This document shows positions 172-46,865 of a stretch of DNA of 64,000 nt, piece by piece. The position numbers and the translations under genes were made by a program. The notes under the pieces are model-generated. The model worked only from the letters and a program-made list of their open reading frames with translations, searched no databases and had not been told where the DNA came from. Numbering within the stretch: position 1 is the stretch's first letter; each line of letters opens with the position of its first letter. This DNA is from an uncultured bacterium (lineage in GTDB: Bacteria > Omnitrophota > Omnitrophia > Omnitrophales > Abzuiibacteriaceae), in assembly GCA_964387845.1 (NCBI GenBank), contig CAYLXA010000011.1:1-64000 (forward strand), read 5' to 3'.

Positions 172-3100
172 TTGGAAGGAATGTCGAATTATCCTCCGGC
201 AAGAATAATGAGATCACAAATTATTTTCCTCAAAGTTGTCGCCATCACGCTTTGTTTTACATTTTCGGTTACCAGCACAATTGCCTATGGCGATTCGTCT
301 GTCATCATAGAATCTTTCAAGCATAATGCATGGCACGTCACGCCCGCATTTCCGGGGAATAAACCTGCCCAACTCCTTGATTTTGCCCGCAAAGCCGATC
401 TCGTTGTTGCCAGCGGACGTGCGGAGCTTCGTGCAAAAGAGCTGCAAGCTACAAGCCTCAAGCTGCAATCTGATCCGTCCGCGCTGAAAGTCTTGAAGCC
501 TGAAGCTGAAGAATCCCGATCTGAATTGAGGAACGAAGAAGGTGAACTTATGAAACGTCCTCGCGCGCGGCGTGACGCTCGGGAGGACGCCGCTGAGATT
601 GAGCCCGCAGTTGAAACTGAGGCGGTGGTCCAAGCCGAAGACGCTGAAATCAATTACAACCATTTTGCGCAAAGAATTATTAATGAACCGGTGGGGAAAT
701 TGCTGATCGATAAATCTATGGTTGAACAGATCGGCAAGTTAAACGTACCGCAATTCAAACAGATGTTTTATATGGATGTGGGGGCACTCAATGCGTATTT
801 CGTCTTGTATACAATGATCAAGGAAAATCGGGAATTAAATCCGGCTATTCATGACCATATTTTGACGGAAGAAGCAAAGGAAAGGGAAAAAACGGCCGCA
901 GCGGACAAGGCTGTTCAAGCCAAAGCCCAGGAACAAGAAGTTACTGCCCGAGATACAGCTTCAAAAGTGAAGTTGGTTGAGAAAAAGCGGGCAAAGTCTC
1001 AGAAGAAAGAAGCCGGTATAGATACGATTGAACGTGTACAGCTGGCGCCGGTTGAAGCCACAAAATTGACGCAGGGACTTTTTAGGCGGACGTTATCAAA
1101 ATATAAACAGCTCTGGAAACAGATCAGACAAAATAATCTGGATAAGAAGGACCGTGCGTTGGTCATGGCGACAAACATTATGTTGCTGGGCGGCGCTGCT
1201 TTCAGCACGATGCTTTGGGTATCGACTGATTTCGGCAAATATGCCGCGTGGTTTGGATATTTATCAACCGTTTTTTTGAGTGAAGCCGGCCTGCCGCTGT
1301 TTGTTAATTTTGTGGGAACGATCGATGAAATGGTTTTGGATGTGAAGGCAGTCAACGCGACCGAACGATTTATCGAATCACTTGATCGCTTTGAAGAATT
1401 TTTCCGCCGAATGCCGTTAAATCCGATCACGGAAAAAGGTTTGATCAAAGGAATCCGGAGTTTGCCGGCTGAGATTCAGCTTGAGTTGAAGAAAATCTCG
1501 GAAGGCAAAGATTGGGATTACCGGAATCTTGAGAAGTGGTACGAAATCCGAAGAAATCAGGTTATCCGGATTTTGAGAAAAGCGGATCTTGTTATTCCTG
1601 GCGAATTGGAAAATGCGCCGGCTTGGCAGGAGGAGGAAAATGGTGGCAACCCAAGGGTTCATCGCGGCAAACTTCTAAAATTGGTTTCAGAAGCGGTTAA
1701 TGATTCACGCAACGCGAATCGGGTCGAGGAATATCGGAAATGGGCGGAAAAATACAAGAAGGCGCGGACATTATTGCGTAAGATCAAGGGCTTGAATGAA
1801 GAAGAGATGCACTTGCTCGCTGTTCAACTCACCACAACATCGTTTTACGGGCATCCGGAACTTGAAAAACGTCTGGTACGCGCATTCTCGCGTATCGAGA
1901 AACGCCAAAAAAACGCGGATCAGGCGGTCTTTCTTGACCGGGAAGAAGGAAGCAGTTATACATTCAGTGCGCAGGGCCTTGTTGATTACGTGGCCGCGCG
2001 CTTCAGATTATCGGAATCAGACTATGATCTGGAAATTGATCCGGTGCCGCCTGATTTTGTTAATCAGGTCCGCATCCGTTCCGAATTGCGCATCTCATTT
2101 CTTCAAAAACTAGCAATTATCACAACGTTACTGACCGCATTCTTTATCCCGAACACATCAAAAGCTTCGACCATTCCTGTCGGATTTATGCCGCCCATTG
2201 ACAGCGCTTACCTTCATTCAGAAGGCGTCAGAGAAATCCGAGACGATGAAAAAAATGTTTGGCAATATCAAAAATATTCCAACCTCGATATTTTAACCGC
2301 CGCCGCAGTTTTAAATGCGACGAGAGAAAGTCCAAACGCTTCAGTTGATGCTGGTGTGATTGGCGTTTTCAGAAATGAAAGGAAACCGCTTGAGGAGCGG
2401 ATCTTGGCAGCGACCGTTTTAATGCTTAAACAGAAGGATTTTAAGAAAGAAGCGGGTGACTTCCTGGTCAAAATTCTGCATGACGAAACCAAGCCCGGTC
2501 TTGACCGTACGATGGCCGCAGCGGCTTACGCGCGGCTCATTGACGAGTCCTCTCATAAAAAAACACATAAATTTGCTATGGATTATTTGGTACGGGTTCT
2601 TTATGACGCCGACAAGCCTTATGCAGAACGTTTATATGCCGCGTCAGCCTATGCGTTGTTCAAAGCAGGAAGAGATTACATTGACGGGCCTAATTATAAA
2701 ACAACCATTGAATATGCCATGAGCATTCTGGTCAGCGCATTGCATGATGAGGAAGCGCCGGTTTCTCATCGGCTGATTGCCGCTGCTGCTTACGCCGGGC
2801 TTGATGATATGAATTTCGGCGATACGCATGAATATGCTATTCGGTATCTCAAGCAGGTTTATCAAAATCCGAAATCTCAATTTTCAAACCGTGTTACAGC
2901 TGCAGCGGCGCTGCTTGCGGCGGATGAATATGATTCAGAAGACAAATTTCTGGCTCTTATGCTTCGTTTGCCGTCGTTTGATAAAAAAGGAAATGTTGTT
3001 AATGAAAGGACGCCTGTTGATTTGCTTGATGCGATTCAGAACGGTGCGTTAACAGATGCCGGTGCGCATGCGGTAAAAGAGAAATTAAAAACCATACTTG

Positions 3101-6100
3101 ATGAAGGCCGTTTGAACCATGACGTGGGTCTTTTAGTGCGTTACGCGGAGGTATTGGAAAATCCGACCGCCGTTGATTTTGCGGAAATTGTGAAACTGGT
3201 TAGTGCTGTGCTGCCTGATGAAGAAAATCGACTTGAGTTTTGGTTTGATATCGCCAAGAAAGTTCAAGATCCGGAAAAGTTTAATTTTAATTCTTACGTC
3301 TTAAAAAATCTTCTGACCGATCCCGTTCTAGATCCCGCTCAGGTCCCCGATCAGGAAATCATGGAATTCCTGATTAAGAATCATCCCGACCAAGAACTGC
3401 GCAAGCAGTTGAAAGTTCGCATGAAAGAGTCGCAGTGGCAAATGGTTAAGGGGACGCAGGTGGTATACCTTGCGCTGGTTTTTATGGTGGGTGTCGGAAT
3501 CAGCATCCAGCAAATGAAAGCCCGCCGCCGTTCCGAACTCAGAAGTATTTTGATTGAATTGTGGAATTCAGTCCAAACTATTGCACGTGATCCTATTTAT
3601 GGCCCGTCGTATGCGATTTGTTTCGGTTTGATGGCTTATATGGTAATTAAGTTTGGGCCGAGACGCGGCAGTTTCTTCCCGGGAAGTTCGCGGAATATAG
3701 AAAGAATGATCCGCGCAAAATTCAAGAATGCATCTCCATCAGATTTAGATCAAGCCCGGACGATTGTCAAAGAACTTCGGGATAAAATCGAAAAAAACCT
3801 GGAACGGCCGCATTTCGAAATACGCTATGTGCTTCCTGCGATTATTCAAAGTGCAAACAGCGTTGAGCAATTGAGAAAGTTTGTGGAATCCTTGGGCGTC
3901 TGGAAGGATGCCGGATGGTTTGATCGATTAATTGGCGGAGTTCTGCCTTTATCTTTGGTTGGACGCCTTGGTGAAGCACCTCTTTTAGTCGGAAATCCTT
4001 ATGAAAAGCCGGCAATTGAAAAGGCGATGAAAGGGATTGCCCGGGCTATTCAGAGCTCCGATGAATTCCGAGAAGGGTTTGAAACCGTTGTCATTTTCTT
4101 TGAAAAATTGAAGCAGGCAACTGCAAGAAAAAAATATTTTCGAAACGAAAGTATTATTTCTCCTCAAGTTGCTTGGGAAGAACTGCTCCAGAAAGCGCAC
4201 CAAATTCGGATGCAGCACGGCGATTTTACCGTTTCTTTTCAGCCGGAAGAGCGGGAGATCATTAACAATCGCTACACTGACAAAGTTCTGCAACACCAAG
4301 TAATTTCTGTCAATGAACCGAGCGTGGCTTCTGCGCGTTCCGTCCCAACTCACAATAAAATGCCGGGAACGTCTATTGATGGGAAAGTTGGGACGGCTCA
4401 GACTTCCGATGAAAATTCGTCAGGTTCTTCAATGAAAGTCAGGGCCGAATTGCGGCAGGCGAGCAGCCGCATGCGCGCCAAGCAGGAACGTTTATTTACC
4501 GAGCGCGCGGCGAGCCGGCGTATTGCAAGAATTGACCGATGGTTTCAGCATTATCATGATGATTATGACATGAACTGGAACCCCGAATTTTTTGCGAGTA
4601 AGCACGAAACATTCCTGGACCGTATCAAAACACAATTGCGGGATTTTGAAATCGAGAACGAAGCTATTGATATCGCGATAGAACAATCCATGTCAATTTT
4701 AATAGCGGGCGTTCCCGGCGGCATCATCCGCGCTTTCCTCAAGCGTTTTACGAACATGGTGCATCGCCATATTTACGGCCCCGTGGCGGTAGAAGAAATC
4801 AATGACCGCATGCGGCATTTTAAAGAAAGAATTGATAGAAGTCTTGAATCCGCCGCCAGCCTCGATGAAAGGCGCCGCTTGATGAAAGGTTACCGCTTAA
4901 AGCACGGCTATCTTTGGATAGACAATGTGAGGACAAGTTTTGAGGAACTTCCGGTTGATCATTCTACCGCATCTACCGTGAAAGTGATCGGCCCGCGTGA
5001 AATGAAAATCCATCAAATTGCCGGCTACTTCGAAAATATTTTGCACCGCAAGAGAGGATTGCTGACGGATCAAAAAGACCATGAAATTCTCAAGTTTCTT
5101 GTCGGCCGTTTAACGGATTCTGACCCTTGGGTGGTAAAGGCGGCAGTGTGGGGGATTAACCGTATTGCGGACCGGATGGATCCCGTGCTCAAACAATTTA
5201 TTTTGGAGCGTTACTATGAAATTCTGAGCGGCAATCACAGTGAAGTTGCCCGGGGCTCTATTGCACGGTCCATCCGTGAAGTTTTTAACCCGCAAAGTTT
5301 GGATGTCGCACTTGAGATGTTGAAAACGGAGCAAACCGAATGGGTGCAGACTTACCTCGTTGAGGTCATTCAAACCATTGTGAGCCAATCCGATAAAAAA
5401 TCACTCCGCTACAAACATTCCCGCGACATTATCGAGCAGCTGCTTGAGAAGGCGGTCGGTGATCCTGACGCAAAAAGATCGCACATCATGCTGCGCGTCG
5501 GAAGCATTAAAGCATTGGCCGAGCTTTTATGGTATGACCCTGAAGTTTTGGACCGCTTGAAAGAAATGGTTTTAACCGAGCCGGATTCTACCATTCAAGA
5601 AGCTGCAATGTGGGCACTTGCAAGATTGCATGTGGCAACGCCGGAAGGGATGGCTCAGATCGATTCGTTGCTAGAAACTTTGACGGCATATCTGGAAAGC
5701 AGTCATGCAGGCCGAAAAAACGTTTTCTTAGAACAATATGCCAGACAGCTTCTTTTTTGGCTGCAGCGGCTTTCGTCCAATCGAGATCTGAAAGCAAAAA
5801 TTTTATCGATGAAGCGTACGAATCCTGATTTTTCTTTGACCGAGAAAATTATTTTAGGCGCACTGAACCAGATTGAAAAATATACAAAGAGATTGAAACT
5901 GCTGGAACATGCAAATTGGATTTTTGAGTTGTTCCAGAGTGCGATTTTTAGGCGCGCCCGCTCAGGCTCAGCCCGTACATTAACAGCGTATCATGACCGA
6001 TTGAAAGCACAGGCCAAACGTGACGCGGTTTATTTCAGCGGTCGCGCGATGAATCCGGTTATTTTACTCGACATCGATGCGATTCTTCCGAAAGAGGGCG

Positions 6101-9100
6101 ATGAAGCCGCAAAAGCATCTGAATCCGACCACGTTTTCGATATTTTAAAATCGTTTATGGATAGAGGCTGGAGCGTGGTCGCGACAGACCGGTATCGCGA
6201 AGAGCGTGATGCAGCTCACTTCAACGTTGCCCAGGGCGCCGAAATGAAATTAAAAAGCAAGGTGCTCAGGCAAGCCATCAAATTTTTGGCGTCAAACCGC
6301 CCGATCCGTATTCCTTCAAAAGACTGGTCGCGGGGCAAGCGGCATCAGCGCATGTCCGGCCTCTTGGTTCCTGTTCCGGACGAACCGATTGTCGTGCTTG
6401 TACACGGGCCGGAACTTTGGATGGTGAAAGACATCATGCCCGGCACTTTTTCGGGAATCGTATCGGTTGGTGATTATAAAGATGCTTCTAACGGTGTCTA
6501 TTTAGACAAACTCATTGACGCCATCGAAAAGAAAGCCAACGGCCGGATTGTTCAGCGTGAACCGTCACGTTCTGAGCTGCGGCATGGGCCTGAAGATTTT
6601 GTCAGAGACGAAACCGCGCGAATGGTTCGTGAGCTGGTCGGCACTTTCTACAAAAAATCTGTTTATCCTTTCGCGCACGAAATCGACAAAGGCAATATAC
6701 GCATTGAAGATCAAATTTTAGAGGAAGCGGCCCAGGCGGGGCTTTTCGGCCTCGCGATTCCGGAAGAGTTTGGCGGCTCGGGCCTCAGCCCTATTTTAAA
6801 AATCATTGCCGACATCATCGGCTGGTATATCAATCCTTCCGTTGCGCTTTCGATCGGTGTTCACAATAGCGTTGTCAAAGGGCCGATTCAAGATTACGGA
6901 ACGGAGGAGCAAAAAAAGAAATATCTCACGAAACTCGCGAGCGGTGAATTGATCGGCGGCTATGCGCTCACAGAATTGGAAGCCGGGTCCCAGGCATTGA
7001 GCAAGCGGTTTCCACTCCAGACGACCGCTGTCCCCGTGGAAGTCGACGGAAAACAATACTACAAACTAAACGGAACCAAACGGTTTATCACGAACGCCCG
7101 TTTTGCCGGTGTTTTTGTGGGTTTTGCGATGCTGGGTGACGAGCGAAGAGTATTTATCATTGATCGTGACTTGGAAGGTGTTTCGGTCGGAGAGGACGAG
7201 CAGAAAAGCGGTTTAAAAGGTTCTTCGACCGCGGATTTAATTTTGCAAGACGTTTTGGTTCCGGCTGAAAATCTGATCCCGGGAGACGGGATCAAAATCG
7301 GCATGTCTACCATGAGCCAGGGGCGCCTCAGCATCGCCGCAAGCGCTTTGGGCGGAAGCATGCGGATTTTTGATGATACGCTGGAATATTCGAAATTGCG
7401 CAAACAATTCGGCGGGCCAATTTGGCAATTCGGCGGCGTTAAGCAAACTCTGGCGGAAATGGCCGCGGATCTTTACGCGCAGGAGTCCGTTGTTTATGCG
7501 GTCGCATCTCTGCTGACCGAAGGCAAAGTGAATGCGGCATTTGAATCGGCGGTTGCCAAAGTTTTCGTGACGGAGAAATTTAACCACATTGCCCAGAAGG
7601 GCGTCAAAACACACGGCGGCGCCGGTTACATTTCGGATACGCCCACGGCGCGCATCGGCCAGGATGCGATTGTTACTGAAATTTTTGAAGGCATGAATGA
7701 TGTGCTTTATTCGAACGTGATTGCAGCCCTCTATCTTAAGAAATTGATGACGGAAGGCAATCAGGTGCTGAACATCTCGGATTACGGCCAGTTTTATCCG
7801 GAAATCCAAAAACTTTCGAGTTTAATCGGGCAAACCGGTAAAGTCATTCTCGGAAAATTCGGAACGCTCACGCCGGAGAATCAAGATGAGTACATGGCAT
7901 TCGGGAAAATGGCCTCCGAATTTTACGCAATTGTGTCCGCAGTGCGCAGGACCCGGAAAATAACATCAGAAATTAATCCGGATGACCCCAAACTGAAGCA
8001 TTTTTTGGATGTCACACGGCTGGTTGTAGCGAGAGGCACTAAACGGATCCGCGATGAGGCGTCTCATTTTGTAGATCCGGATGTGTTCGGCGTTTCTTCC
8101 GACCAGCGTAAGTATTTTGAATTAACCCGCGGCATTGCGGAACATCTCGTTGTCAATCCGCCGAAACGCATTGTTGAATTCAACGCCTCAAACGAAAGTC
8201 AGTCAAGCCGCGCCGAGCTTCGTCTCGATCCCGTTTATCTTGTCGATTTGACAGTGTTTGGCTTGCTTGCCATTTTACCGTCTTGGTTTGCGCTTAAACT
8301 GACAACCGAGCGCTATGCTAAGCGAACGATCGATCAGCTATATTCGCCGGCGGTTCAAGAAGAGATGGATGCGAATCGTTCTTTCAATGTCAATTTTTTA
8401 ACATTTTTTTATGACCGGGCAGTTCATTGGGTCCGGTTTCTTGTAATATCATTTTTGCACGGTTTTAGTGCATGGGTAGCCAGCTATTACGCTTTCGCCA
8501 TGTATTATCCGGCGGCTTCAATTTTTTGGCCTCTTGTTGCGGCTGCGGCTGCATTTGGCGCTTCCGGTGTTTCTTTATGGATTCGCGACAAAAAGCAGGT
8601 GCGGCAAAAAATAACTGTGGCTGCACAAATTCCGGCCAAGCAAATTCACGGAAAGTTTGAGCTGAATTTTGATTTGGTTTTTGGCTTTGATTTACGCGAA
8701 CTTTTAGACGGTAAAACAGGGGAAGAGCAAGCGCTTCAAAATTTACGGGCAAAAGTAGAAGAGCAGGTGGAGAGGATCGCCGCAAACAAGGGCGCCGTTC
8801 CCGCCGAGGTGGGAAAAGTTTTGGTTCCGGTGACGCCTGAAAGCTTTGCGAGCACAGGACCCAATTTCAAAGTGGAGGGCCTTCGCGGCCAGTTTACAGT
8901 TCGCATCCCTCGAAGCAATATCAATACTATGCACTCTTTTCCGCTCAATGTTACGTCCGTCTATTTGGGCGGCCAAAAAATCGCGGTCGGCACCGTGTTT
9001 TTCGAGAAAAATAAAGATGCGCGCTCAGAGTTGAGGTCCGAGGGTGCAGCAAAAAGTGCTTTTTCGAATTTCTTAGCGAGTGTGCCGGAAGATTCTGAAA

Positions 9101-12100: not shown

Positions 12101-15100
12101 GCCTGATTCCAACTATCCGTCAAATGGCGCTGACGGAGAAGAACGCGCTCTTAAGATCTCATGCCATTATTTTCTTTCTCGCTCTGTCTTTGCGGTATCC
12201 TCAGTTCAGAGGAAGCCGAAGGACGTTAAAACGCTTAGCGCCCGAATTGGAGCGGTATGTGCTCGAAGGGAAGGATTCCAACATGACTCAAACGGGTATT
12301 TTAGTTCTTGAGCATCTTTGGCGTCAGTTAGACAAAAATCCGGAGCGCTTCGAAACATTTATCAGCCGGTATATTTTCGGAGAAAACCATGCGCCGACCG
12401 GAATTCGGCGTACTGAAACTTATTGGGCGGGCAAATTAGCGCACTCCGAAATCTCGGAAAAGATGCCGACTCTGGACCGGATTCTGGCTAACAATGATCA
12501 GTTATCTCGTTTTCTCACTTTTCTTTCCGTTATGCGGCTTGCTTATCCTTATAGCATGATTAATGGTAGTTATGAGCGCCCGATTGCTTGGGCTAAGAAG
12601 AACCAAAAGATTTTTAAGCTCGACGAGCTCCGCATTGCGTTTGTCAGTGAATCATACCGCCGCCATATTATTTTTACGGAAGACCAAAGTCTTGCACTCG
12701 AAATAAAATTCCCAGGCGAACGCGCTTCAAGCGGCGATGTTTCGAAAATTCACGTGACATTGGCCGAAAAGTTGCGGCAGCAGCCTAAGGGTGAAACGGT
12801 GGTCAGCGAACCACTCTTTTTTATAGGTTTGAAAGGGTTATTCAATCTTTATGGCCCCCGGGAAACCTCGATTGAATATAAAGAATTTCCTTTGGGAATT
12901 GTGGGGTTCCGGTATCAAGACTCGAAACGTTTGCGTAATGTGCTTGAAGATAAAGAATTGTGGCAAGCATTTGTTGAGGAAGCTTATGGGCCATCGGACA
13001 AGTATCAACAAAAGGCCTATGTGCGGATTGCTGCGGATTTAATTATTTTTGCACTCAAGATTCATGAATTGGGTTATCAGGCCAGCACGCGCCGCCTAAC
13101 GGATCTTCACCTTGAAAATTTTGCGCTGTTGCCCGACGGCCACGTTTTTTCCGTGGCTGATTTCGGAATTTATTCCCGTAGCGGCAGCCGTTTAACCAAA
13201 TTCCGTAAAAGAAAAGAAACAAGCGGCCTGCTTGCTGCATTAACGGCTTACAAAAGCAGTCTCATTAGCGCTTGGGACAATCCGACATTTGTCATGGAGG
13301 TCGTTGACGCTGTTTTGGTTAAACTTTTAACAGGCGTTACCGATCCGGCAGAAAGAACAGAAATCATTCTGCGTGTCTTTGGGGAAGTGCGGGATATTTT
13401 TGAAAAAGTCGGCATTTCACCGCTATTCGAGGATGCGCTTGTGCGGGCTTGGGATGTTAATCAAGAGCCGGATGGATATGAAGTCCGTCAAAAAATTGCA
13501 AAATCCATCATTTCCAGATCGGTTATCGCTATTGGAATCGCATCCGATGCGTGGTCTGCGCTTCGATACGACAAAGATCAAGAAAGATTGATTACATCAC
13601 CGCTTCCGGACGATCTTGTGCATCGATTCTGGGATCATCCGGAATTGTTGCAACCGCTAGAACCGGTATTGCTAAGTGATAAAGAAGTTAATCTTCTCGA
13701 TAAAGCTTTCAAGCTTCTGCCTGAAGTGGATCGAAACCAGTTTACGTCGGATCCTAATTCTATGATCGTGTTAATGAAAGGAATGGATGCGCACATTGCA
13801 GAATCAACGATTGATTTCAAAAGATTGACGAACCCGCACGCCTATCACGACTTGGTGTCACCGCGTTTCTTTTTTGACCAGCGGCTGATCAAAGACCCGT
13901 TTGAATTCATGAAAATACTTCACAACGAGATCAAACTGCGGAATGCGATTCTTCAGAGTTTAACCGAAGATGAAATCGCGATGCTAAAAAACCGTCATTT
14001 GCCGGCTGAGCTTCAATCGAAAATCATGAAAAAAACACAGGAAACCAGAGATTTGCAGTGGGACACTTACTTTCGATCAGCCGGAAAGCAAGAACCCAAT
14101 CAAGAACAATTAAGTCTTTTGGAGGACCTTATTGTCTATGGTGCGCAGGATCATTTGCATAAAACATTCGAGTCTCCCGCAGAAGCTTTGTTGGCATTAG
14201 CAAAATCATTAGGAGAATTGAAAGGCGCTCAAAAGAAACGAACTCAAGATTTTCTATTTTACATTCACAACGAAATTTTATCTTTGATTCTGCTCAATCC
14301 AGATGCGGACTTAGATTTAAGAATATCGGCGGTTGTCTATGAGATAGAAAAGGCCAAGTTAGAATCGTTTGCGCTTTTGACTGCCGAGCCATTGGCACGG
14401 CATTTGGAGCGTATCTACGACCGGCATAAAAACGTCCGGCTGCGTGTTGTAATTCTTCGCTTCCTAGCAATTGTTCATGAGCAAGTTGAGCGGGAGATGA
14501 GAGATAATTTAAAGTCAGGGGACAATTTAGTTAAAACTCGTTACGTCGTCGAATCGATTGCCTGGAGGATGGCAGTCGGCGTTTTGAAAAACAATAAAAG
14601 CAAACGTGTCGAAAAGGAGATCGTTAAACTTTTGCTGCAGCTTTTACGGCCTTATGCCGCGGTCTCTCAAAAACCGAATCATGGGCAGTTACGTCTGCTT
14701 CTTGAGGAGGCTGTGATTTACATAAACCAGAATATCGAAAAAGATCCTTCAAAGGAAAAAAACAAGCTGCTTGCCCTGGCAATTTTAAGCAGGCAGATTC
14801 CGATTGCAAGCGACTATTTGGAAGCTGCGCTATTGCGGTATATTTTCGATTCAGATGACATTAAAGGAATACGGATGCGAAAGTCTGGCTATCCGGCGAG
14901 CGATGCTATTCAGCCTTTTGAACAAAGCATGCCCACGCTTATTCAAATATTGAAAAACAAGCAGTATTTAGCGCGTTTCATGGTTGCGCTCAGTATTTTG
15001 CGTGAAGCTTTTCCGTACCACGTCCCCAATTCGCATGATTTTAATGAAGACCTGCTTGAAACCGTAGAAACCAGTGGCGCCGTGCGGCTGAAAGAGCTCT

Positions 15101-18100
15101 TAATCGCGCCGCTTATGCATGAATATTCAAGCCACTTGGTTTCCACAGAGGACGGCCGCAATGTTTTGCGGCTGGTGATTCCGGGCGATTCTGTGCGGCA
15201 TTTTAGTAACCATCTTCGGAAAAATCATGTAGGCAAAAGAAATTTATTATTTTTTATTCCCATCCTCGGCGTCCCATTTTTGTATGGAGCTCTGGATTCC
15301 CATCGACTTTCGGGGTTTGCGGGTTACCGGGAACGCGCCAGTGAAGGTTTGACCATGAAAGAAATCAGAAGGCGTGAAATGATGAATGATCGGATTCCAT
15401 CGTTGGTCAGGACGATCTTGACGCACTTTGGCCAGAAGTATGATGCATCGGCGCTTCATGAAGCATTGGTTCGTCAGGATGTCAATCAGATCACAAAACT
15501 CATCTTCAGCGATGAATATTATCAAGATTTCAAGCAATGGCTGCTCAATTATATGCGGAACGTTTTTCATATGGAAGAAAGCGAAGTTCCGGATGCCTTC
15601 CGGCGTGCTTTAAAACAATACTTTGAGAAGAAAGAATCGCTAGGCCGCACAGAAGCAGCCGTAAAAAAATCAGCAGAAGGAAGCGACGCTCAATCAAAAT
15701 CCCGTTCAGAGCTCAGGGCAGGTGAGTTGTCCGCGGAAGTCCAATTGGCCAATGAGATCACCAAAGCCGTCACAAATTTTGCATTGTGGAAATCATCGGA
15801 ACACAAAATGTCGGTCTCTCGTCAGCAAATGCAAGGCTATAGAGATGCGCATCGGGAAGCGGATGCTTTGGTTAAGGCCGGAATCAAAACTTTGTTACTT
15901 TCCAGGGAAAGGGCAAAGCTCATTCAAGCTCGAACTGCAGTTCAACAGGCTATGAACCAGAGCGGCGTGACGGCAAAGGCAAAGAAAAGATACGAGTTTT
16001 ATATTGGGTTGCTCAATCAAGCCACCGAAAATCGTTCCGTCCCGACTCACAATAAAACGCCGGATCAGACTTCCGTTGAATATCCTCGCAATTCTTCAAT
16101 GAAAGCCAGAGCCGAGTTGCGTTCGAATCAAGCGTATCTTTGGAAATCGAAAATTACATTGGAATTGGCAAGCCCGGCCGGGAAGCCGGACGCTCCTAAA
16201 CGGTATATATTTGAAATAGAAGGCCGCAAATTCATGACGTTCGATGATCCTGATTCGGCCATTGAAATTGTGGGCGAAAGAGCGACCGATCTTGGTGTGC
16301 ACGATCCTTTTCTCAGTATTATGATCACCGAATTGCTGCCGTGGATTTTTGTTGAAAGCTTCAAAAATAGGAGGGTACGCCAACCAGACGGAAATTTTGC
16401 GCTTCAATTTCCGGAACTTGATTCCGGAGAAAAAGATATATTGGAAAGCGAAGTGCAGGTTGCTTTTGGTATTGGGAGTCAGCCGAGTTATGTTGCGTTT
16501 GGCCCCCGATGGTATCGCTTACCCGAGCGCGAATCGATTAATCAGATTGTCAATCAGGCCACCGATAGTTTTGCAGGTGATGATTCAATCGAAAAGCGTG
16601 CAGTGCCGGCTTTGGTGACTTTGGTCAAAGTTTTGAATGACGAAAGCCGAAGCGATGTTGAAACTTACATCGAACAGAAATTTGGTCCGCATGAATTCTT
16701 AAAACGTATGCTGACTTCCGAGAGAGTTACAAAAAACACTTTTTTTGATTTTGTCCGCCGTAATTTATTTTTGGAGCGGATCGGTGAAAAGTGGTTTCCC
16801 TACGGCCTATATACAGATACTAGGCGGTCTGAGCTAAGGCATGATTTTCGCTTTCTCCTAGGAATAGAGCGCGAAGAAGAAATGCAGAAAATCTTCGACA
16901 AGATTAAGCGGGGAGATTCCAACGACATCGAGCAAGCCTTAGGTTCCTTGATTGATTTTATCGGTACGATTCCCAATTTTTTAGATGACCGAAAGTGGGC
17001 GGAATTAAGGAAGTGGATTGCCCGGAATGTGGTTGGCAGCATCAATGTTTCATCTTTTAATACAGCCGGTATTCAAGATTTACTTATCCGTTTTTACAAT
17101 ATCCTGCCGGGCCCTACGACATTGGCTCTGTCTGCTTCGCTGGATGATGAAACCGAATTTGGTGAGCGCATATTTATATTAACTTTCTTATTAGCGGGTA
17201 TTCAAGAATCCGAAAACATAGCAAAGGTTGTATTGCGCAATCGTGTTTTTCAACGAGAAGCAAGCCGGCCAAAAACCGATAATGAAGCCCAGCTTTTTAA
17301 TCAAATTCACCAAGCAATCGATAGAAAAATTAAAGATCAGGCTTCGCCTAGCCCGGCTGCCGGGGAATTATCCGACCCACGATCTGAGCTTCGGATTGCG
17401 TTTACGGATGAGCTTCATCCGGAATTGTTAAGCAGGGAATTTGCAGACGAAAATTCGATCCGAAACAATTTAATAGAGGTTATGAGCGAGCCCAAGACTC
17501 GTGTGGAACTGTTGGGAATTAAAACAGGCGAGTTCATTCAGCGCACGATGGGCAAGATGCAGGTTGTTTTCGAGAAAACCGGCGAACGGGTCGATTCCCT
17601 GACGGGTGAACATGTTATAGAAATCGAATTTAATGTGATTGCGACAAAAGTTCATACCGAGTCCGGAACTATCGAAGCGCGAACGAAACCAAACAGCCGG
17701 TTGTTTGAAGGGCTAAATGCCGGTATCGTGCCGGAAATTAAAATTCGTTTTAACACGGCAATGACGAACGGGATTCGTGCGGTCAATGCGCGCCACGGGG
17801 AAATGGACGAAATTTTCGCTTCTCAAGTTCCGGATTTGGCGAGCGGTTTGGAACGTGTCGGACCCATTGCGGGCCATGATCTTATTTTCGGTGAGGATGG
17901 ATCGCCGCTTTTTGCGGAATATTTTCTTAAAAGATTCGGCGTTCTGGCCGTCGTTACGAGTTCACAAGCTGAAGAAGACTTTTTAGATCCGATCCGGGAT
18001 GACTTACAAAACGGGGAAGTGTTGATTGTCGCTCAAAGTTTTGAAGAAGCGCGCTTGGAACTTAGGAAAAGGGGATTTACGAATCAATTATTGCTTGTTT

Positions 18101-18249
18101 CCGAGTTTGATTTCGTTTCTGATTCGGTTAAGTCACGGGCCTATCAAATGAAAGTCTTCAGCAGGTCTGAAATGCGGCGGTTGCTTTCGGTTGTGGAAGA
18201 GGCAGCCATTCAAATCCGTTCGGAGCTCCGGACAGCCGTTTCGGCGTAA
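172..18249 (+). CDS. giant multi-domain membrane protein (6025 aa): N-terminal signal/TM, HEAT-like repeat arrays, acyl-CoA dehydrogenase-like domain, alpha/beta-hydrolase domain, APH/kinase-like motif, multiple TM clusters; recurrent SRSELR motif
   Basis: Single uninterrupted ORF from the six-frame track. Domain-level similarity in one frame throughout: ACAD motifs (PEEFGGSGLS, LNGTKRFITN, FEGMNDV), hydrolase GYSMG nucleophile elbow, HEAT-like AAAAYA repeats. The likely true start is ATG at 181, preceded by GGAAGGA; the TTG at 172 is the track start. A hydrophobic N-terminus (IIFLKVVAITLCFTFSVTSTIAYG) suggests a signal peptide or anchor. Stop is TAA at 18247-18249. Confidence 0.8.
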   Translation: MEGMSNYPPARIMRSQIIFLKVVAITLCFTFSVTSTIAYGDSSVIIESFKHNAWHVTPAFPGNKPAQLLDFARKADLVVASGRAELRAKELQATSLKLQSDPSALKVLKPEAEESRSELRNEEGELMKRPRARRDAREDAAEIEPAVETEAVVQAEDAEINYNHFAQRIINEPVGKLLIDKSMVEQIGKLNVPQFKQMFYMDVGALNAYFVLYTMIKENRELNPAIHDHILTEEAKEREKTAAADKAVQAKAQEQEVTARDTASKVKLVEKKRAKSQKKEAGIDTIERVQLAPVEATKLTQGLFRRTLSKYKQLWKQIRQNNLDKKDRALVMATNIMLLGGAAFSTMLWVSTDFGKYAAWFGYLSTVFLSEAGLPLFVNFVGTIDEMVLDVKAVNATERFIESLDRFEEFFRRMPLNPITEKGLIKGIRSLPAEIQLELKKISEGKDWDYRNLEKWYEIRRNQVIRILRKADLVIPGELENAPAWQEEENGGNPRVHRGKLLKLVSEAVNDSRNANRVEEYRKWAEKYKKARTLLRKIKGLNEEEMHLLAVQLTTTSFYGHPELEKRLVRAFSRIEKRQKNADQAVFLDREEGSSYTFSAQGLVDYVAARFRLSESDYDLEIDPVPPDFVNQVRIRSELRISFLQKLAIITTLLTAFFIPNTSKASTIPVGFMPPIDSAYLHSEGVREIRDDEKNVWQYQKYSNLDILTAAAVLNATRESPNASVDAGVIGVFRNERKPLEERILAATVLMLKQKDFKKEAGDFLVKILHDETKPGLDRTMAAAAYARLIDESSHKKTHKFAMDYLVRVLYDADKPYAERLYAASAYALFKAGRDYIDGPNYKTTIEYAMSILVSALHDEEAPVSHRLIAAAAYAGLDDMNFGDTHEYAIRYLKQVYQNPKSQFSNRVTAAAALLAADEYDSEDKFLALMLRLPSFDKKGNVVNERTPVDLLDAIQNGALTDAGAHAVKEKLKTILDEGRLNHDVGLLVRYAEVLENPTAVDFAEIVKLVSAVLPDEENRLEFWFDIAKKVQDPEKFNFNSYVLKNLLTDPVLDPAQVPDQEIMEFLIKNHPDQELRKQLKVRMKESQWQMVKGTQVVYLALVFMVGVGISIQQMKARRRSELRSILIELWNSVQTIARDPIYGPSYAICFGLMAYMVIKFGPRRGSFFPGSSRNIERMIRAKFKNASPSDLDQARTIVKELRDKIEKNLERPHFEIRYVLPAIIQSANSVEQLRKFVESLGVWKDAGWFDRLIGGVLPLSLVGRLGEAPLLVGNPYEKPAIEKAMKGIARAIQSSDEFREGFETVVIFFEKLKQATARKKYFRNESIISPQVAWEELLQKAHQIRMQHGDFTVSFQPEEREIINNRYTDKVLQHQVISVNEPSVASARSVPTHNKMPGTSIDGKVGTAQTSDENSSGSSMKVRAELRQASSRMRAKQERLFTERAASRRIARIDRWFQHYHDDYDMNWNPEFFASKHETFLDRIKTQLRDFEIENEAIDIAIEQSMSILIAGVPGGIIRAFLKRFTNMVHRHIYGPVAVEEINDRMRHFKERIDRSLESAASLDERRRLMKGYRLKHGYLWIDNVRTSFEELPVDHSTASTVKVIGPREMKIHQIAGYFENILHRKRGLLTDQKDHEILKFLVGRLTDSDPWVVKAAVWGINRIADRMDPVLKQFILERYYEILSGNHSEVARGSIARSIREVFNPQSLDVALEMLKTEQTEWVQTYLVEVIQTIVSQSDKKSLRYKHSRDIIEQLLEKAVGDPDAKRSHIMLRVGSIKALAELLWYDPEVLDRLKEMVLTEPDSTIQEAAMWALARLHVATPEGMAQIDSLLETLTAYLESSHAGRKNVFLEQYARQLLFWLQRLSSNRDLKAKILSMKRTNPDFSLTEKIILGALNQIEKYTKRLKLLEHANWIFELFQSAIFRRARSGSARTLTAYHDRLKAQAKRDAVYFSGRAMNPVILLDIDAILPKEGDEAAKASESDHVFDILKSFMDRGWSVVATDRYREERDAAHFNVAQGAEMKLKSKVLRQAIKFLASNRPIRIPSKDWSRGKRHQRMSGLLVPVPDEPIVVLVHGPELWMVKDIMPGTFSGIVSVGDYKDASNGVYLDKLIDAIEKKANGRIVQREPSRSELRHGPEDFVRDETARMVRELVGTFYKKSVYPFAHEIDKGNIRIEDQILEEAAQAGLFGLAIPEEFGGSGLSPILKIIADIIGWYINPSVALSIGVHNSVVKGPIQDYGTEEQKKKYLTKLASGELIGGYALTELEAGSQALSKRFPLQTTAVPVEVDGKQYYKLNGTKRFITNARFAGVFVGFAMLGDERRVFIIDRDLEGVSVGEDEQKSGLKGSSTADLILQDVLVPAENLIPGDGIKIGMSTMSQGRLSIAASALGGSMRIFDDTLEYSKLRKQFGGPIWQFGGVKQTLAEMAADLYAQESVVYAVASLLTEGKVNAAFESAVAKVFVTEKFNHIAQKGVKTHGGAGYISDTPTARIGQDAIVTEIFEGMNDVLYSNVIAALYLKKLMTEGNQVLNISDYGQFYPEIQKLSSLIGQTGKVILGKFGTLTPENQDEYMAFGKMASEFYAIVSAVRRTRKITSEINPDDPKLKHFLDVTRLVVARGTKRIRDEASHFVDPDVFGVSSDQRKYFELTRGIAEHLVVNPPKRIVEFNASNESQSSRAELRLDPVYLVDLTVFGLLAILPSWFALKLTTERYAKRTIDQLYSPAVQEEMDANRSFNVNFLTFFYDRAVHWVRFLVISFLHGFSAWVASYYAFAMYYPAASIFWPLVAAAAAFGASGVSLWIRDKKQVRQKITVAAQIPAKQIHGKFELNFDLVFGFDLRELLDGKTGEEQALQNLRAKVEEQVERIAANKGAVPAEVGKVLVPVTPESFASTGPNFKVEGLRGQFTVRIPRSNINTMHSFPLNVTSVYLGGQKIAVGTVFFEKNKDARSELRSEGAAKSAFSNFLASVPEDSEKWKSFLREQLALFAAEWVKLPGELQNFFPEETHLFQEFTADNIPAVNLDNFFKLAAVRDAVVDFMPKLNQSSSLPQNAEAVQIPGFNGALLDGWVIRAADSKQENHPAFLILPPWGDDISKYGKLAELLHQEFPSFHVIGLDYTKDPNLETILNTGGIAESFDIEAVIRALSRFSDLKIDPSKITGIGYSMGANTLAILQKRTGLLSHFVPIGLHDSYASVLAGYYENVHIPRIARIVTRRGYSFIDWTDPMIREHAKRLLIEARLRMNQFTIARREIPVKPEDDPFLDLAETASSLQIPVHFVFEEESDLLQESVRDFYRALAGQMNESGRTAQYNTYPGKHNKIDPASLVSDLKTFLTSRSELTSARAEPKTISASSQSAMMSELRKQNHFILFVAGSILFWAGCLMTEQKPVSEMPAETPIEQIAETSEPVTNAPADDISEPAEIQKQPRAPPKSEFETLLEALETGNDDERWDAAKTLSRSANSAASGTFLKALQDSNSLVRREAIIFFRYHHDPRAPKVLIELYRKELDLGIRSDIVETLGILQSAEAVSFLIQRIKREDGAAFYVLKRALVRIGVQAIEPLIDAIRFEYNKELAAKYEETLREIFRNPDAAEQRKKAEKHWYEAVRRAALGITSRSELRKFHEPKPQASGVDAGIYIEGLEKVIRANRFSALRYDRTKKRWVMTSILIDGKKRKGLLLSRKQLDGVNLAFSTLHQKLQKEMTEKSNARIIFVKGLMPILGNHMPWVQRPAGLSGFSKPDFILDRNAAYNPLALLDQFEYEIRRKRLMAGQFSPAEKRELIRNPNTFDLRVKFKQVYLEAHAQLIQDNVINSRDELSFYDSTQRTRLLELVILQAAQEATQVRYRSVENALKALDEAAKDGNHSGHQVAIGILALHASDIAARLIKKSDNESIKIAALDYIASALIDQDTASPAIEITGGLHHEIRNILTNSKNPRLKAAALQLFTVLIYVQLVDSNEKLNALEYHYANLELVIRSLIPTIRQMALTEKNALLRSHAIIFFLALSLRYPQFRGSRRTLKRLAPELERYVLEGKDSNMTQTGILVLEHLWRQLDKNPERFETFISRYIFGENHAPTGIRRTETYWAGKLAHSEISEKMPTLDRILANNDQLSRFLTFLSVMRLAYPYSMINGSYERPIAWAKKNQKIFKLDELRIAFVSESYRRHIIFTEDQSLALEIKFPGERASSGDVSKIHVTLAEKLRQQPKGETVVSEPLFFIGLKGLFNLYGPRETSIEYKEFPLGIVGFRYQDSKRLRNVLEDKELWQAFVEEAYGPSDKYQQKAYVRIAADLIIFALKIHELGYQASTRRLTDLHLENFALLPDGHVFSVADFGIYSRSGSRLTKFRKRKETSGLLAALTAYKSSLISAWDNPTFVMEVVDAVLVKLLTGVTDPAERTEIILRVFGEVRDIFEKVGISPLFEDALVRAWDVNQEPDGYEVRQKIAKSIISRSVIAIGIASDAWSALRYDKDQERLITSPLPDDLVHRFWDHPELLQPLEPVLLSDKEVNLLDKAFKLLPEVDRNQFTSDPNSMIVLMKGMDAHIAESTIDFKRLTNPHAYHDLVSPRFFFDQRLIKDPFEFMKILHNEIKLRNAILQSLTEDEIAMLKNRHLPAELQSKIMKKTQETRDLQWDTYFRSAGKQEPNQEQLSLLEDLIVYGAQDHLHKTFESPAEALLALAKSLGELKGAQKKRTQDFLFYIHNEILSLILLNPDADLDLRISAVVYEIEKAKLESFALLTAEPLARHLERIYDRHKNVRLRVVILRFLAIVHEQVEREMRDNLKSGDNLVKTRYVVESIAWRMAVGVLKNNKSKRVEKEIVKLLLQLLRPYAAVSQKPNHGQLRLLLEEAVIYINQNIEKDPSKEKNKLLALAILSRQIPIASDYLEAALLRYIFDSDDIKGIRMRKSGYPASDAIQPFEQSMPTLIQILKNKQYLARFMVALSILREAFPYHVPNSHDFNEDLLETVETSGAVRLKELLIAPLMHEYSSHLVSTEDGRNVLRLVIPGDSVRHFSNHLRKNHVGKRNLLFFIPILGVPFLYGALDSHRLSGFAGYRERASEGLTMKEIRRREMMNDRIPSLVRTILTHFGQKYDASALHEALVRQDVNQITKLIFSDEYYQDFKQWLLNYMRNVFHMEESEVPDAFRRALKQYFEKKESLGRTEAAVKKSAEGSDAQSKSRSELRAGELSAEVQLANEITKAVTNFALWKSSEHKMSVSRQQMQGYRDAHREADALVKAGIKTLLLSRERAKLIQARTAVQQAMNQSGVTAKAKKRYEFYIGLLNQATENRSVPTHNKTPDQTSVEYPRNSSMKARAELRSNQAYLWKSKITLELASPAGKPDAPKRYIFEIEGRKFMTFDDPDSAIEIVGERATDLGVHDPFLSIMITELLPWIFVESFKNRRVRQPDGNFALQFPELDSGEKDILESEVQVAFGIGSQPSYVAFGPRWYRLPERESINQIVNQATDSFAGDDSIEKRAVPALVTLVKVLNDESRSDVETYIEQKFGPHEFLKRMLTSERVTKNTFFDFVRRNLFLERIGEKWFPYGLYTDTRRSELRHDFRFLLGIEREEEMQKIFDKIKRGDSNDIEQALGSLIDFIGTIPNFLDDRKWAELRKWIARNVVGSINVSSFNTAGIQDLLIRFYNILPGPTTLALSASLDDETEFGERIFILTFLLAGIQESENIAKVVLRNRVFQREASRPKTDNEAQLFNQIHQAIDRKIKDQASPSPAAGELSDPRSELRIAFTDELHPELLSREFADENSIRNNLIEVMSEPKTRVELLGIKTGEFIQRTMGKMQVVFEKTGERVDSLTGEHVIEIEFNVIATKVHTESGTIEARTKPNSRLFEGLNAGIVPEIKIRFNTAMTNGIRAVNARHGEMDEIFASQVPDLASGLERVGPIAGHDLIFGEDGSPLFAEYFLKRFGVLAVVTSSQAEEDFLDPIRDDLQNGEVLIVAQSFEEARLELRKRGFTNQLLLVSEFDFVSDSVKSRAYQMKVFSRSEMRRLLSVVEEAAIQIRSELRTAVSA
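2395..2950 (+). other. tandem ~47-aa HEAT/ARM-like repeats (motif R..AAAAYA.L.D....YA..YL..VL.D...P, 4-5 copies) inside giant ORF
   Basis: Repeated protein motifs AAAAYARL / AASAYALF / AAAAYAGL / TAAAALLAAD at regular ~46-47 aa spacing in the translation. Confidence 0.5.
4336..4455 (+). repeat. intragenic direct repeat copy 1 (encodes SVPTHNKMP...SSMKVRAELR) in giant ORF
   Basis: About 90% nucleotide identity to 16034-16122 over ~90 nt (cgttccgtcccRactcacaataaaaYgccgg ... cagacttccgWtgaa ... ttcttcaatgaaagYcagRgccgaRttgcg). Copy 1 has a ~30-nt insertion. Confidence 0.75.
6655..7745 (+). other. acyl-CoA dehydrogenase (ACAD)-like domain embedded in giant ORF
   Basis: The translated segment KSVYPFAHEIDKG...FEGMNDV carries canonical ACAD N-, middle- and C-domain motifs: GLFGLAIPEEFGGSGL, GGYALTELEAGSQ, LNGTKRFITNA, GGAGYISD, FEGMNDV. 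It begins directly after SRSELR copy 4. Confidence 0.75.
9350..10140 (+). other. alpha/beta-hydrolase fold domain (serine hydrolase, GYSMG nucleophile elbow at 9661-9675) embedded in giant ORF
   Basis: HPAFLILPPWGDD...HVIGLDY...GIGYSMGANTLAIL... followed later by Asp/His candidates (HFVFEEESD..., PGKHNK). Typical order of an a/b hydrolase with a G-X-S-X-G motif. Confidence 0.6.
10500..10870 (+). other. PBS-lyase/HEAT-like repeat module in giant ORF
   Basis: ERWDAAKTLSRS...LVRREAIIFF...PKVLIELY...IRSDIVETLGIL...AVSFLIQRI resembles E-Z type HEAT repeats. Confidence 0.4.
12990..13180 (+). other. protein-kinase-like (APH/LPS-kinase/ELK superfamily) catalytic-loop + DFG motif in giant ORF
   Basis: ...ADLIIFALKIHELGYQASTRRLTDLHLENFALLPDGHVFSVADFGIY. 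DLHLEN (13102-13119) matches the HGDLHPGN/HRDLKPEN catalytic loop (D...N). ADFG (13156-13167) matches the DFG metal-binding motif at canonical spacing. Confidence 0.4.
16034..16122 (+). repeat. intragenic direct repeat copy 2 (encodes SVPTHNKTP...SSMKARAELR) in giant ORF
   Basis: See copy 1 at 4336-4455. Near-identical nucleotide stretch despite otherwise unrelated flanking sequence. Confidence 0.75.
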
Positions 18250-23223: not shown

Positions 23224-23946
23224 ATGAAATCAGTAGAATTAGAAGCAAATTTGAGAGAAAAAATAGGCAAAACGGCTGTGAAGAAGATCCGCGCCCAAAA
23301 GCGGATTCCGGCGGTTGTTTACGGTCATCAGGTCAAAAAGCCGATTTCGGTCGATTTTGATTATAAGCAGTTTGAAGCGGCGCTTCATACAAAAGCCGGC
23401 GAAAACGTGCTGATCAATCTTAAGATTTCGGGCAAAGAAAAGCTCGATAAGACCGTGATCATCAAGGATATTCAGCATCATCCGGTGACTGATTTCATCG
23501 AGCATGTGGATTTAAACGTTATTTCGCTGACTGAAAAAATCAAAGTGAACGTTCATGTGACTGTCGCTGGCGAAGCTCCGGGCGTTAAAGAAGGCGGCGT
23601 GCTGGATTTGGTCCGTCACGAAATCGAAGTCGAATGTTTGCCGACTCACATTCCGGAAAAGCTCGAAGTGAATATTGAAAAACTTGGAATCGGCGATTCG
23701 ATTCACATCAAAGATATGAAGTTCCCGTCTGATGTGCATTGCATGCTCGATCCGGACGAAGTGGTGGTCGCAGTTCATGCGCCGAAGGCCGAAGAAACGC
23801 CTGCTGCCGAAGGTGAGGCTCCGACGGAACCTGAAGTGATCGCAAAAGGCAAGGAAGATAAAGAAGGCGAAGAAGGCGCAGCTCCGAAAGCAGAAGCGAA
23901 GGCCGACAAACCTGCGGCGGAGAAGGCTGAAAAACCCGCGAAGTAG
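23224..23946 (+). CDS. rplY: 50S ribosomal protein L25 / general stress protein Ctc, with Ala/Glu/Lys-rich C-terminal tail
   Basis: N-terminus MKSVELEANLREKIGKTAVKKIRAQKRIPAVVYG is typical of L25/Ctc. Conserved rplY-pth adjacency. Confidence 0.85.
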   Translation: MKSVELEANLREKIGKTAVKKIRAQKRIPAVVYGHQVKKPISVDFDYKQFEAALHTKAGENVLINLKISGKEKLDKTVIIKDIQHHPVTDFIEHVDLNVISLTEKIKVNVHVTVAGEAPGVKEGGVLDLVRHEIEVECLPTHIPEKLEVNIEKLGIGDSIHIKDMKFPSDVHCMLDPDEVVVAVHAPKAEETPAAEGEAPTEPEVIAKGKEDKEGEEGAAPKAEAKADKPAAEKAEKPAK

Positions 23947-23951
23947 TTTGA

Positions 23952-30167: not shown

Positions 30168-30689
30168 ATGAAGTTGAATCAAAAATTATTGTCAGTGTTT
30201 TTATTATTCGTGTTTGTTTTTGGATTGGCCAAGGCGGGTTTTTCGGCTGAACAGAAAATCGCTTATATCGATATCGGCAAAGTGTTCGATGAATACGAAA
30301 AAACCAAAAAGTTTGACCAAGAACTTCAGGAAGAAGGGAAAATCAAGCAAAAGGAGCGCGATGAAAAGGTATTGGCGATCCGAAAGCTGAAAGATGAGCA
30401 GGCTATTTTGTCGGATGAAAAGAAGAAAGAAGCCGACGTTAATATTGAAAAGAAACTCAGAGAGCTCGAAGAGTTTGATCAATCAATCGGGCGCGAACTA
30501 AATGCAAGACGCGACAAGGTTGTTAAGGAAATTTTTCAGGATATCGACGGGCTTCTCAAACAATACGGAGAGCGCAAAGGTTATGACTTTATTTATAACG
30601 ACCGCGCACTCGTGTACCGCAATCCGAAATATGATAAGACCGACGAAGTGCTCAAAGAATTGAACGAGTCGTATAAGAAGAAAAAGTAA
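30168..30689 (+). CDS. skp: periplasmic chaperone Skp/OmpH
   Basis: Signal peptide plus a Lys/Glu-rich coiled-coil body; position between bamA and the lpx genes. Confidence 0.85.
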   Translation: MKLNQKLLSVFLLFVFVFGLAKAGFSAEQKIAYIDIGKVFDEYEKTKKFDQELQEEGKIKQKERDEKVLAIRKLKDEQAILSDEKKKEADVNIEKKLRELEEFDQSIGRELNARRDKVVKEIFQDIDGLLKQYGERKGYDFIYNDRALVYRNPKYDKTDEVLKELNESYKKKK

Positions 30690-46861: not shown

Positions 46862-46865
46862 ATTT

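Follow-up and report, generated by a model that had tools for sequence, protein, structure and literature searches.

Is a bacterial gene product of about six thousand residues one working chain, or is it divided into many products? For giant proteins of the Omnitrophota type this question is open, and it is raised here by a stretch of 64,000 nucleotides (hereafter the window) from an uncultured bacterium of that lineage (GenBank assembly GCA_964387845.1, contig CAYLXA010000011.1, positions 1 to 64,000). An open reading frame (ORF) at 172-18249 of the + strand, the strand to which all features of the giant protein given below belong, has 6025 codons when counted from a TTG at 172; its likely start is an ATG at 181 or 208, and the NCBI call of the same protein (P0038) begins at 208. 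In the encoded protein the pentapeptide R-[S/A]-E-L-R is repeated many times. An earlier note on this DNA had described it as marking module boundaries, and the analysis given here identifies a conserved short site that recurs at unit borders and supplies concrete, testable sites for the question.

Translation of the giant ORF yielded 14 strict copies of R[SA]ELR (ten RSELR and four RAELR) and, besides these, three degenerate copies (RSELT, MSELR and RSEMR). All 14 positions listed in the earlier note were correct, and copies at 418, 2077 and 18163 were added to them. A WAELR at about nt 16999 is probably a chance occurrence. The strict count is 14, whereas 2000 residue shuffles gave 0.04 on average and never more than one (approximately 300-fold enrichment); this check had been proposed in the note. 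The wider pattern R[SA]E[LM]R occurs neither in the other five frames nor in the remaining 46 kb of the window, and R[SA]ELR was encountered only nine times in the ORFs of at least 100 residues within 1.28 Mb from 80 other bacterial loci.

When the DNA of 16 copies was compared, every one was found to differ, with all six arginine codons in use. As the codons vary between copies, selection acts on the peptide, which is what the note had claimed. These data also bear on the simplest explanations, namely a compositional quirk, an assembly artefact or a nucleic-acid signal such as a recombination scar, an internal start or a recoding site. One linker repeat at the DNA level would fit them and nothing further was found, whereas the enrichment, the absence of the motif elsewhere in the window, its rarity in the other loci, the DNA differences between all copies, the presence of the same protein on record in NCBI and the analogous architectures in independent assemblies make this group of explanations practically negligible. 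Specifically, a DNA repeat or scar was rejected because the copies differ in codons, and internal translation starts because the codon before SELR encodes arginine, with one exception. Known sorting signals (Tat SRRxFLK, LPXTG, PEP-CTERM and others) were likewise rejected, as the copies are internal, are mostly without an adjacent hydrophobic stretch and have a different consensus. The one DNA-level repeat consists of two linkers that end in RAELR (copy A, RSVPTHNKMP...SSMKVRAELR, at 4336-4454; copy B, RSVPTHNKTP...SSMKARAELR, at 16033-16121). They are 79-94% identical in DNA and are the sole linker pair alike at this level, which suggests a recent linker duplication or gene conversion.

Where do the copies lie relative to the modules of the protein? 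Pfam and NCBIfam recognise just an acyl-CoA dehydrogenase (ACAD) module (aa 2147-2520) and HEAT repeats (aa ~1640-1845 and 3437-3535), and for the orphan modules searches of Pfam, NCBIfam and PDB sequences likewise yielded HEAT and ACAD only. From the N-terminus onwards, a signal-peptide-like hydrophobic segment (IMRSQIIFLKVVAITLCFTFSVTS, 205-276) is followed by RAELR at aa 83 (418-432) and RSELR at aa 116 (517-531). The RSELR at aa 636 (2077-2091) stands directly before a signal-peptide-like segment (ISFLQKLAIITTLLTAFFIPNTSKAS), that at aa 1120 (3529-3543) has a hydrophobic segment on either side, and the RAELR at aa 1424 (4441-4455) ends linker copy A. The ACAD N-domain begins 14 residues after the RSELR at aa 2133 (6568-6582). 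The entire ACAD module (aa 2133-2679) contains N, M and C domains (6610-7731) with Pfam scores above the thresholds (PF02771, 92.7 bits; PF02770, 54.2 bits; PF00441, 111.4 bits), aligns with stand-alone ACADs at 30-40% identity, begins at the position of their Met1 and is closed by the RAELR at aa 2680 (8209-8223), after which comes a transmembrane segment (LDPVYLVDLTVFGLLAILP). The RSELR at aa 2951 (9022-9036) precedes a putative alpha/beta-hydrolase module, which is recognised by a GYSMG elbow and a weak Pfam match (E 0.24) only. Next are RSELT at aa 3338 (10183-10197) and, at 10249-10323, MSELR (aa 3360; 10249-10263) together with a lipobox-like signal (KQNHFILFVAGSILFWAGC) that opens a HEAT module. 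Signal or transmembrane-like segments are therefore found after copies 636, 1120, 2680 and 3360, the last being the lipobox-like FILFVAGSILFWAGC. The RSELR at aa 3617 (11020-11034) forms the N-terminal border of a kinase-like module. Beyond this module lie RSELR at aa 5178 (15703-15717), RAELR at aa 5313 (16108-16122, ending linker copy B), RSELR at aa 5552 (16825-16839) and aa 5737 (17380-17394), RSEMR at aa 5998 (18163-18177) and a last RSELR with the C-terminal tail TAVSA-COOH (18217-18246). The claim that copies sit at module starts thus holds before the ACAD module, the HEAT block, the transmembrane segments and the lipobox-like signal, and for the hydrolase depends on the GYSMG elbow and the weak Pfam match. 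Several autonomous functional units are present in this one ORF.

The kinase-like module (module 11, aa 3617-5177) is internally duplicated in tandem (aa 3648-4195 and 4458-5020, 11113-15231; 24% identity, E 3e-22). It contains a domain of protein-kinase-like fold (aa 4030-4440, 12259-13491) with the motifs LEIKFPG, DLHLEN and ADFG, which in the family read EIK(M/F)PG, D(L/M)HxEN and DFG. The AF2 model of this domain, built on 25 homologues, has a pLDDT of 86, and its top Foldseek matches in the PDB are all kinases or atypical kinases, including SelO and COQ8-type atypical kinases (E to 2.5e-5, TM-score 0.25-0.35). The presence of a kinase-like module in the protein, noted previously from the sequence, is borne out by this model. 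No Pfam family matches the module, and with the fold match this indicates a new family within the protein-kinase-like fold. In the second copy of the duplication the catalytic region is missing. The DELRIAF at about nt 12622, which had been put forward as a parallel of the motif, is instead part of the kinase-like domain, in its conserved core; as the family consensus at this place is ELxIxPxSESFRRHI, it was rejected as a degenerate motif copy. The junction of the duplication (window 13480-13560, aa ~4428-4450) reads ...SIISRSVIAIG... where the relative P0039 has NSESR, and it may be a decayed motif copy.

Relatives were collected in two ways, by a full HMMER scan with aa 3617-4816, which returned 87 proteins, and by a scan of metagenomes with the kinase-like core, which added four ORFs (L089, L090 and L086, from JGI samples, Ga0209515, and L084). 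The top match among the 87, P0038, was listed at 92% identity, and turned out to be the window protein itself (100% identical), so that it was rejected as evidence of conservation; the 87 matches include no close orthologue of the giant protein. Word-indexed searches with the C-terminal 850 residues and with aa 2133-3342 gave nothing or distant ACADs and never returned proteins larger than about 1,100 residues, not even the window protein, so that these negatives are weak with respect to giant orthologues. A scan of genome contigs with aa 3617-5182 found nothing, an exact search with the neighbouring Prs had no match, a synteny search via Prs in 80 genomes found neither a giant gene nor the motif, and a jackhmmer comparison of every window module with all fetched relatives matched the kinase-like module alone. 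All named relatives come from metagenome-assembled genomes (MAGs) of Candidatus Omnitrophota/Omnitrophica.

Eight relatives were found to have a recurrent pentapeptide of their own. These are R[SA]E[AV]R in L089 (at least 6922 residues, 22 copies), RAEVR in L090 (at least 5028 residues, 15 copies), xSE[SA]R in P0039 (4156 residues, 12 copies), RSE[VM]R in P0079 (2101 residues, five copies), RPEAR in P0091 (2036 residues, four copies), [RH]SE[VMI]R in P0108 (partial, from an Omnitrophota MAG, four copies), [SA]GFG[AVTH] in L086 (at least 5200 residues, eight copies) and [AG]GFG[AVS] in L084 (at least 5200 residues, seven copies). In the four metagenome ORFs the codons of these pentapeptides vary as well, and the shuffle means are at most 0.13. 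By identity of the kinase-like core, L086 is the closest relative found (58% to the window protein) and L084 shares 50%. Every motif-bearing protein contains the kinase-like module, an association that exists by construction, as the relatives were found through that module; in several further giants that share this domain, a recurrent motif of this kind is absent.

The positions of these pentapeptides are equivalent. Eight proteins carry the local motif, in nine instances altogether, at the border where the kinase-like module begins (window 3617, L086 1139, L084 1366 and 3408, L089 3018, L090 2398, P0039 1323, P0079 1189 and P0091 649). In addition, window aa 1702-2079 align with L089 aa 1-408, and the window copy at aa 2133 matches RSEAR at L089 aa 459. 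The test proposed in the note, whether orthologues lack the motif at these boundaries, thereby had an unexpected outcome: RSELR as such is absent from the relatives, but their own pentapeptides occupy the equivalent borders. Pfam envelopes would be expected to contain 4.95 of 75 copies, and they contain none. The distance to a copy is 14-25 residues for ACAD, CrtO, AAA_16 and GNAT domains, and 33-47 residues for methyltransferase and 2-hydroxyacid dehydrogenase domains. Copies bracket a methyltransferase and a metallophosphatase domain in P0039, CrtO and 2-hydroxyacid dehydrogenase in L089, AAA_16 and GNAT in L090, and Methyltransf_28 and HATPase_c in L086. The median spacing is 215-370 residues, and the module content differs from relative to relative.

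Within the window protein no flank conservation extends beyond the five residues of the motif. Pooling of 78 copies of the R-x-E-x-R type from seven proteins revealed a preference for small residues (40 vs 18.7 expected at -1 and 38 vs 18.7 at +1), a rarity of L/F/W/Y at +1 (3 vs 15.7 expected, p 3e-5) and an enrichment of Asp/Glu at +2 to +4. Hydrophobic 15-mers are found within 45 residues downstream of nine out of 91 copies (3.15 expected, p 0.004), and upstream they are not enriched. Taken together, the small and acidic polar flanks and the downstream hydrophobic segments indicate that the copies reside in exposed polar linkers, and that membrane or signal segments, in those modules that have one, stand at the module start.

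Could such pentapeptides be a passive structural linker or helix cap that serves no dedicated reader, has spread by linker duplication along with the modules and owes its uniformity to gene conversion? Linkers A and B demonstrate that duplication or conversion does occur, and the polar flanks are linker-like. The other copies nevertheless vary in codons while their five residues are invariant and their flanks unconserved; an invariant Arg and Glu would be needless in such a linker, and the replacement of RSELR by SGFGA at the same borders fits a changed reader better than drift. We therefore regard a purely passive role as improbable.

Even less probable is a repeated modification site, for instance one at which the kinase-like module of the protein itself would phosphorylate or AMPylate the serine. 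Ser is invariant in P0039 and P0079, a kinase-like module is present in every motif-bearing protein (by construction, as mentioned), and the Foldseek matches of this module include SelO and COQ8-type atypical kinases. On the other hand, Ala replaces Ser in five of the approximately 17 window copies and in 14 of the 15 copies of L090, P0091 has Pro, no acceptor residue is constant in the [SA]GFG variant, many giants have the same kinase-like domain without such a motif, and the catalytic region is missing from the second kinase-like copy of the window. Phosphorylation is unlikely because of this replacement of Ser by Ala or Pro. Nor does the motif agree with the basophilic-kinase consensus suggested in the earlier note, as it reads R-S rather than R-x-S (with Arg at -1) and has Ala or Pro as acceptor in many copies.

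The strictness of the motif, its homogeneity within a protein and difference between lineages, and its turnover at orthologous borders together suggest a single reader, specific for the sequence and co-evolving with it. What this reader does is less easily decided. The motif, its enrichment, the peptide-level selection, the border position, the positional conservation across lineages and the exposed-linker flanks are observed, whereas cutting as such, its place within the site and the enzyme responsible are inferred. We propose, tentatively and with slightly less than an even chance in our estimation, that the pentapeptides are processing sites of a bacterial polyprotein which are read by a lineage-specific endopeptidase. 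The giant ORF would string together units that resemble separate proteins (an ACAD, a putative hydrolase, HEAT and kinase-like modules and units led by signal or transmembrane segments), and R-[S/A]-E-L-R in an exposed linker would be the recognition site at which a single sequence-specific endopeptidase releases these units. The cut would most likely be made after the last Arg, with R at P5, S/A at P4, E at P3, a hydrophobic or small residue at P2, R at P1 and a small residue at P1'. The SGFG and GARMA variants may be seen as retaining the small P4 and the hydrophobic P2. Co-evolution of the protease with its sites would explain why the pentapeptide is uniform within each lineage and differs from one lineage to the next. 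In the case of the window protein, the protease would act in trans.

Release of modules is at present the best supported role of the reader because of the protein-like units with their own signals, the reshuffled module sets of the relatives, a locus where a giant appears split into separate ORFs (L083) and the internal signals of sister giants. The last two are described here as observations in their own right. Downstream of P0091, at L083 10485-16240, there are ORFs of 1139, 140 and 622 residues without a recorded Pfam match, the first of which has the family tail LVASSA at its end, giving the impression that at this locus the giant is divided among genes. Among the sister giants, P0096 (5861 residues), which shares the kinase-like domain, contains four internal ...GAPGxGV[AV]-C-A[AM]AP sequences (aa 3066, 4098, 4683 and 5467), whose lipobox-like appearance suggests internal sites of the signal-peptidase-II type. 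P0062 (6939 residues) has three internal R-PGFALV[ST] sequences (aa 782, 1294 and 2325), each followed by a transmembrane segment, which resemble the leader sites of prepilin peptidase (G|F). In P0045 (5665 residues) H..(W)NALALW[KR]G.T.AS is found three times (aa 2040, 2933 and 3882), and may be the last motif of intramembrane protease modules of the CPBP/CAAX type. P0090 (3291 residues), which is led by a TIKI-like domain (see below), contains GARM[AS] four times (aa 801, 1205, 1794 and 2290) and ends in ASRMASIAA, so that a motif variant adjoins the C-terminal tail as it does in the window protein.

This tail is a side feature of the family. The window protein (18232-18246) and its relatives share a C-terminus of the form [RKH]-x-A-x-[S/A/Q]-A-COOH with small residues at the end, as in TAVSA, LLASA, FVQSA, LAVSA, TAASA, IARSA, VAASA, SIAA, MIQA, KQAA, KAAA and VASSA. 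It is carried by P0079, P0039, P0125, P0126, P0129, P0130, P0090, P0045, P0062, L092 and the L083 ORF at 10485-13904, and it may be likened to an ssrA/Tsp-type or PDZ-ligand-type C-terminus.

Which enzyme could read the sites? A candidate is offered by the N-terminal domain of the relatives, which belongs to the TIKI superfamily as judged from its alpha/beta fold and its conserved motifs containing His and Glu (HIQxAHxNY, EG and TGGFH). In three complete relatives the first motif copy comes after this domain. P0129, a TIKI-fold protein that stands alone, contains a single RSELR and has the ...SA tail. The TIKI superfamily includes site-specific endopeptidases, Tiki acting on Wnt and RRSP on Ras (PMC6254334). 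The domain of the relatives shares with these the fold and the conserved His/Glu-containing motifs, and could be the endopeptidase for the pentapeptide; it differs from them in that its activity and substrate are putative, and that the window protein does not contain it. The genes upstream of three relatives (L086 among them) have no protease in common, an S33 alpha/beta hydrolase being present beside L086 only.

Several points weigh against cleavage, and against a TIKI-like enzyme as its agent. In the window protein, scans with Pfam and NCBIfam detected no protease domain. Neither this protein nor the 64-kb window as a whole has the TIKI-like domain, according to hidden Markov model searches in which a three-relative profile was compared with the giant protein and a 14-sequence profile with all window ORFs. 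The superfamily also includes esterases and haem binders (PMC6254334). The TIKI-led giants P0045, P0105 and L095 show no recurrent pentapeptide, and the link between the TIKI domain and the motif is therefore loose. Near aa 4440, where the two halves of the duplicated kinase-like module meet, a motif copy is missing. After the last copy only five residues (TAVSA) precede the stop, and some pairs of copies are 15-33 residues apart; terminal copies and close pairs make sense as spacers, though cleavage does not require them. An ACAD of cytoplasmic type next to signal-bearing modules could also fit an uncleaved multi-pass membrane topology. Finally, cleavage is deduced from sequence patterns.

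Part of this evidence accords with a motif that is docked to and not cut, being bound by one reader such as a HEAT, kinase-like, chaperone or targeting/secretion factor. This reader would organise or assemble the giant chain, with the motif co-evolving with it. The strict homogeneous copies, the lineage-specific sequence, the exposed polar flanks and the inter-domain positions fit docking equally well; HEAT and kinase-like modules are part of the same chain, a copy adjoining the C-terminus would be natural, and the window contains no protease that could be found. What docking leaves unexplained are the autonomous-looking modules that carry a signal or anchor segment of their own directly behind the motif, the lipobox-like and prepilin-like internal signals in the same family, and the reshuffling of module sets among relatives. 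We consider docking rather unlikely on balance, yet the main rival of cleavage. The two roles envisaged in the earlier note, a cleavage site and a conserved inter-module linker, both remain viable, and both are strengthened by the border pentapeptides of the relatives.

The rest of the window places the giant gene among ordinary housekeeping genes of Gram-negative type. Its neighbours include ABC permeases, a GlmU-like gene, and genes for Prs, L25, Pth, SSB, L9, DnaB, BamA, Skp, an LpxC-FabZ fusion, LpxA, LpxI, S2, EF-Ts and LeuRS. The sequences most similar to the Prs of the window (60-65% identity) belong to MAGs that carry the labels Planctomycetia, Omnitrophota and FCPU426. Side observations in the window are the LpxC-FabZ fusion gene, a bactofilin fused to an HTH_17 domain, and four tRNA genes (Lys-TTT, Glu-TTC, Ala-GGC and Leu-CAA); the positions recorded for these are 30689-32050, 49253-49825, 46788-47036 and 52470-52681. 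The + strand carries all but two or three of the large ORFs, and the GC skew is positive. The giant gene is followed, at a distance of 5 kb, by the genes for L25 and Pth (23224-24536). In L090 (383-1742) the giant gene directly follows L25 and Pth genes, and the locus may have the same neighbourhood in both genomes.

If the processing reading is correct, it can be widened to the statement that bacteria of this Omnitrophota-like lineage encode various enzymes and membrane proteins in chromosomal polyprotein genes and not in operons, and that a dedicated endopeptidase cuts them at a co-evolving pentapeptide with lineage-dependent forms (RSELR, RAEVR, SESR, RPEAR or SGFG). We hold this wider statement more loosely, as a possibility for which the chances are below even. 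Bacteria would then express ordinary cellular enzymes as polyproteins, in the way that viruses express theirs, with the protease and the code of its sites evolving together, and for giant proteins of bacteria this would be the first cleavage code to be defined. The motif can in any case be used for splitting giant ORFs into units for structure prediction.

How does this compare with known systems? Viral polyproteins are cut at the sites of virus-specific proteases, for example Q|G by the picornavirus 3C protease, or those of potyvirus NIa. Common to both are a long ORF of unrelated units, a short strict site at their borders and in exposed linkers, homogeneity of the site within a genome combined with differences between lineages, and a small P1' residue. 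The window gene differs in being chromosomal and cellular, located beside housekeeping genes, with metabolic and regulatory modules; no protease module was found in its product by the domain scans, and its cleavage would be deduced rather than observed. At the level of the site, the x-E-x-R core with an invariant Glu two positions before an invariant Arg and a small residue next to it is analogous to the I-E-G-R| of Factor Xa-type proteases, R-x-x-R| being the site of proprotein convertases. In contrast to these systems, no trypsin-like or subtilisin-like protease was detected, and the [SA]GFG of the closest relatives is a misfit. A literature search for RSELR matched solely the R package varSelRF.

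Among bacterial proteins, MARTX and large clostridial toxins are cut by an internal cysteine protease at Leu in unstructured segments between effectors (PMC2900308), and the MARTX effector RRSP has a TIKI fold (PMC6254334). These toxins are likewise giant (3,500-5,200 residues), with modular, lineage-variable effectors that are released by cleavage of inter-domain linkers. Their site is a single Leu, whereas the window protein has a strict pentapeptide; its modules are membrane-anchored units and ACAD-type enzymes instead of host-directed toxins, and activation by InsP6 does not apply. Pfam and NCBIfam scans of all modules found no RTX or glycine-rich repeats and no cysteine protease domain (CPD).

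The nearest counterparts are the giant proteins already described from Omnitrophota, for which cleavage into several products has been hypothesised with cleavage points unknown; the lack of known cleavage points is named in the main paper on them as an obstacle to further analysis (West-Roberts et al., bioRxiv 10.1101/2023.11.21.568195). C39 and S8 peptidase domains have been invoked for such giants (10.1101/2023.11.21.568195; 10.64898/2026.06.07.730766), and the passages searched in these sources do not describe the border motif, the TIKI-like N-terminal domain or the kinase-like core. In the window protein Pfam and NCBIfam detected none of the C39 or S8 peptidase, SecA-like, dockerin or CBM domains described for the Archaeovorin and Dockerin types. 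It shares with the described giants the size, the multiple transmembrane segments, the mostly unannotated sequence and the Omnitrophota-like lineage, and to these giant proteins the motif copies add the first candidate cutting sites.

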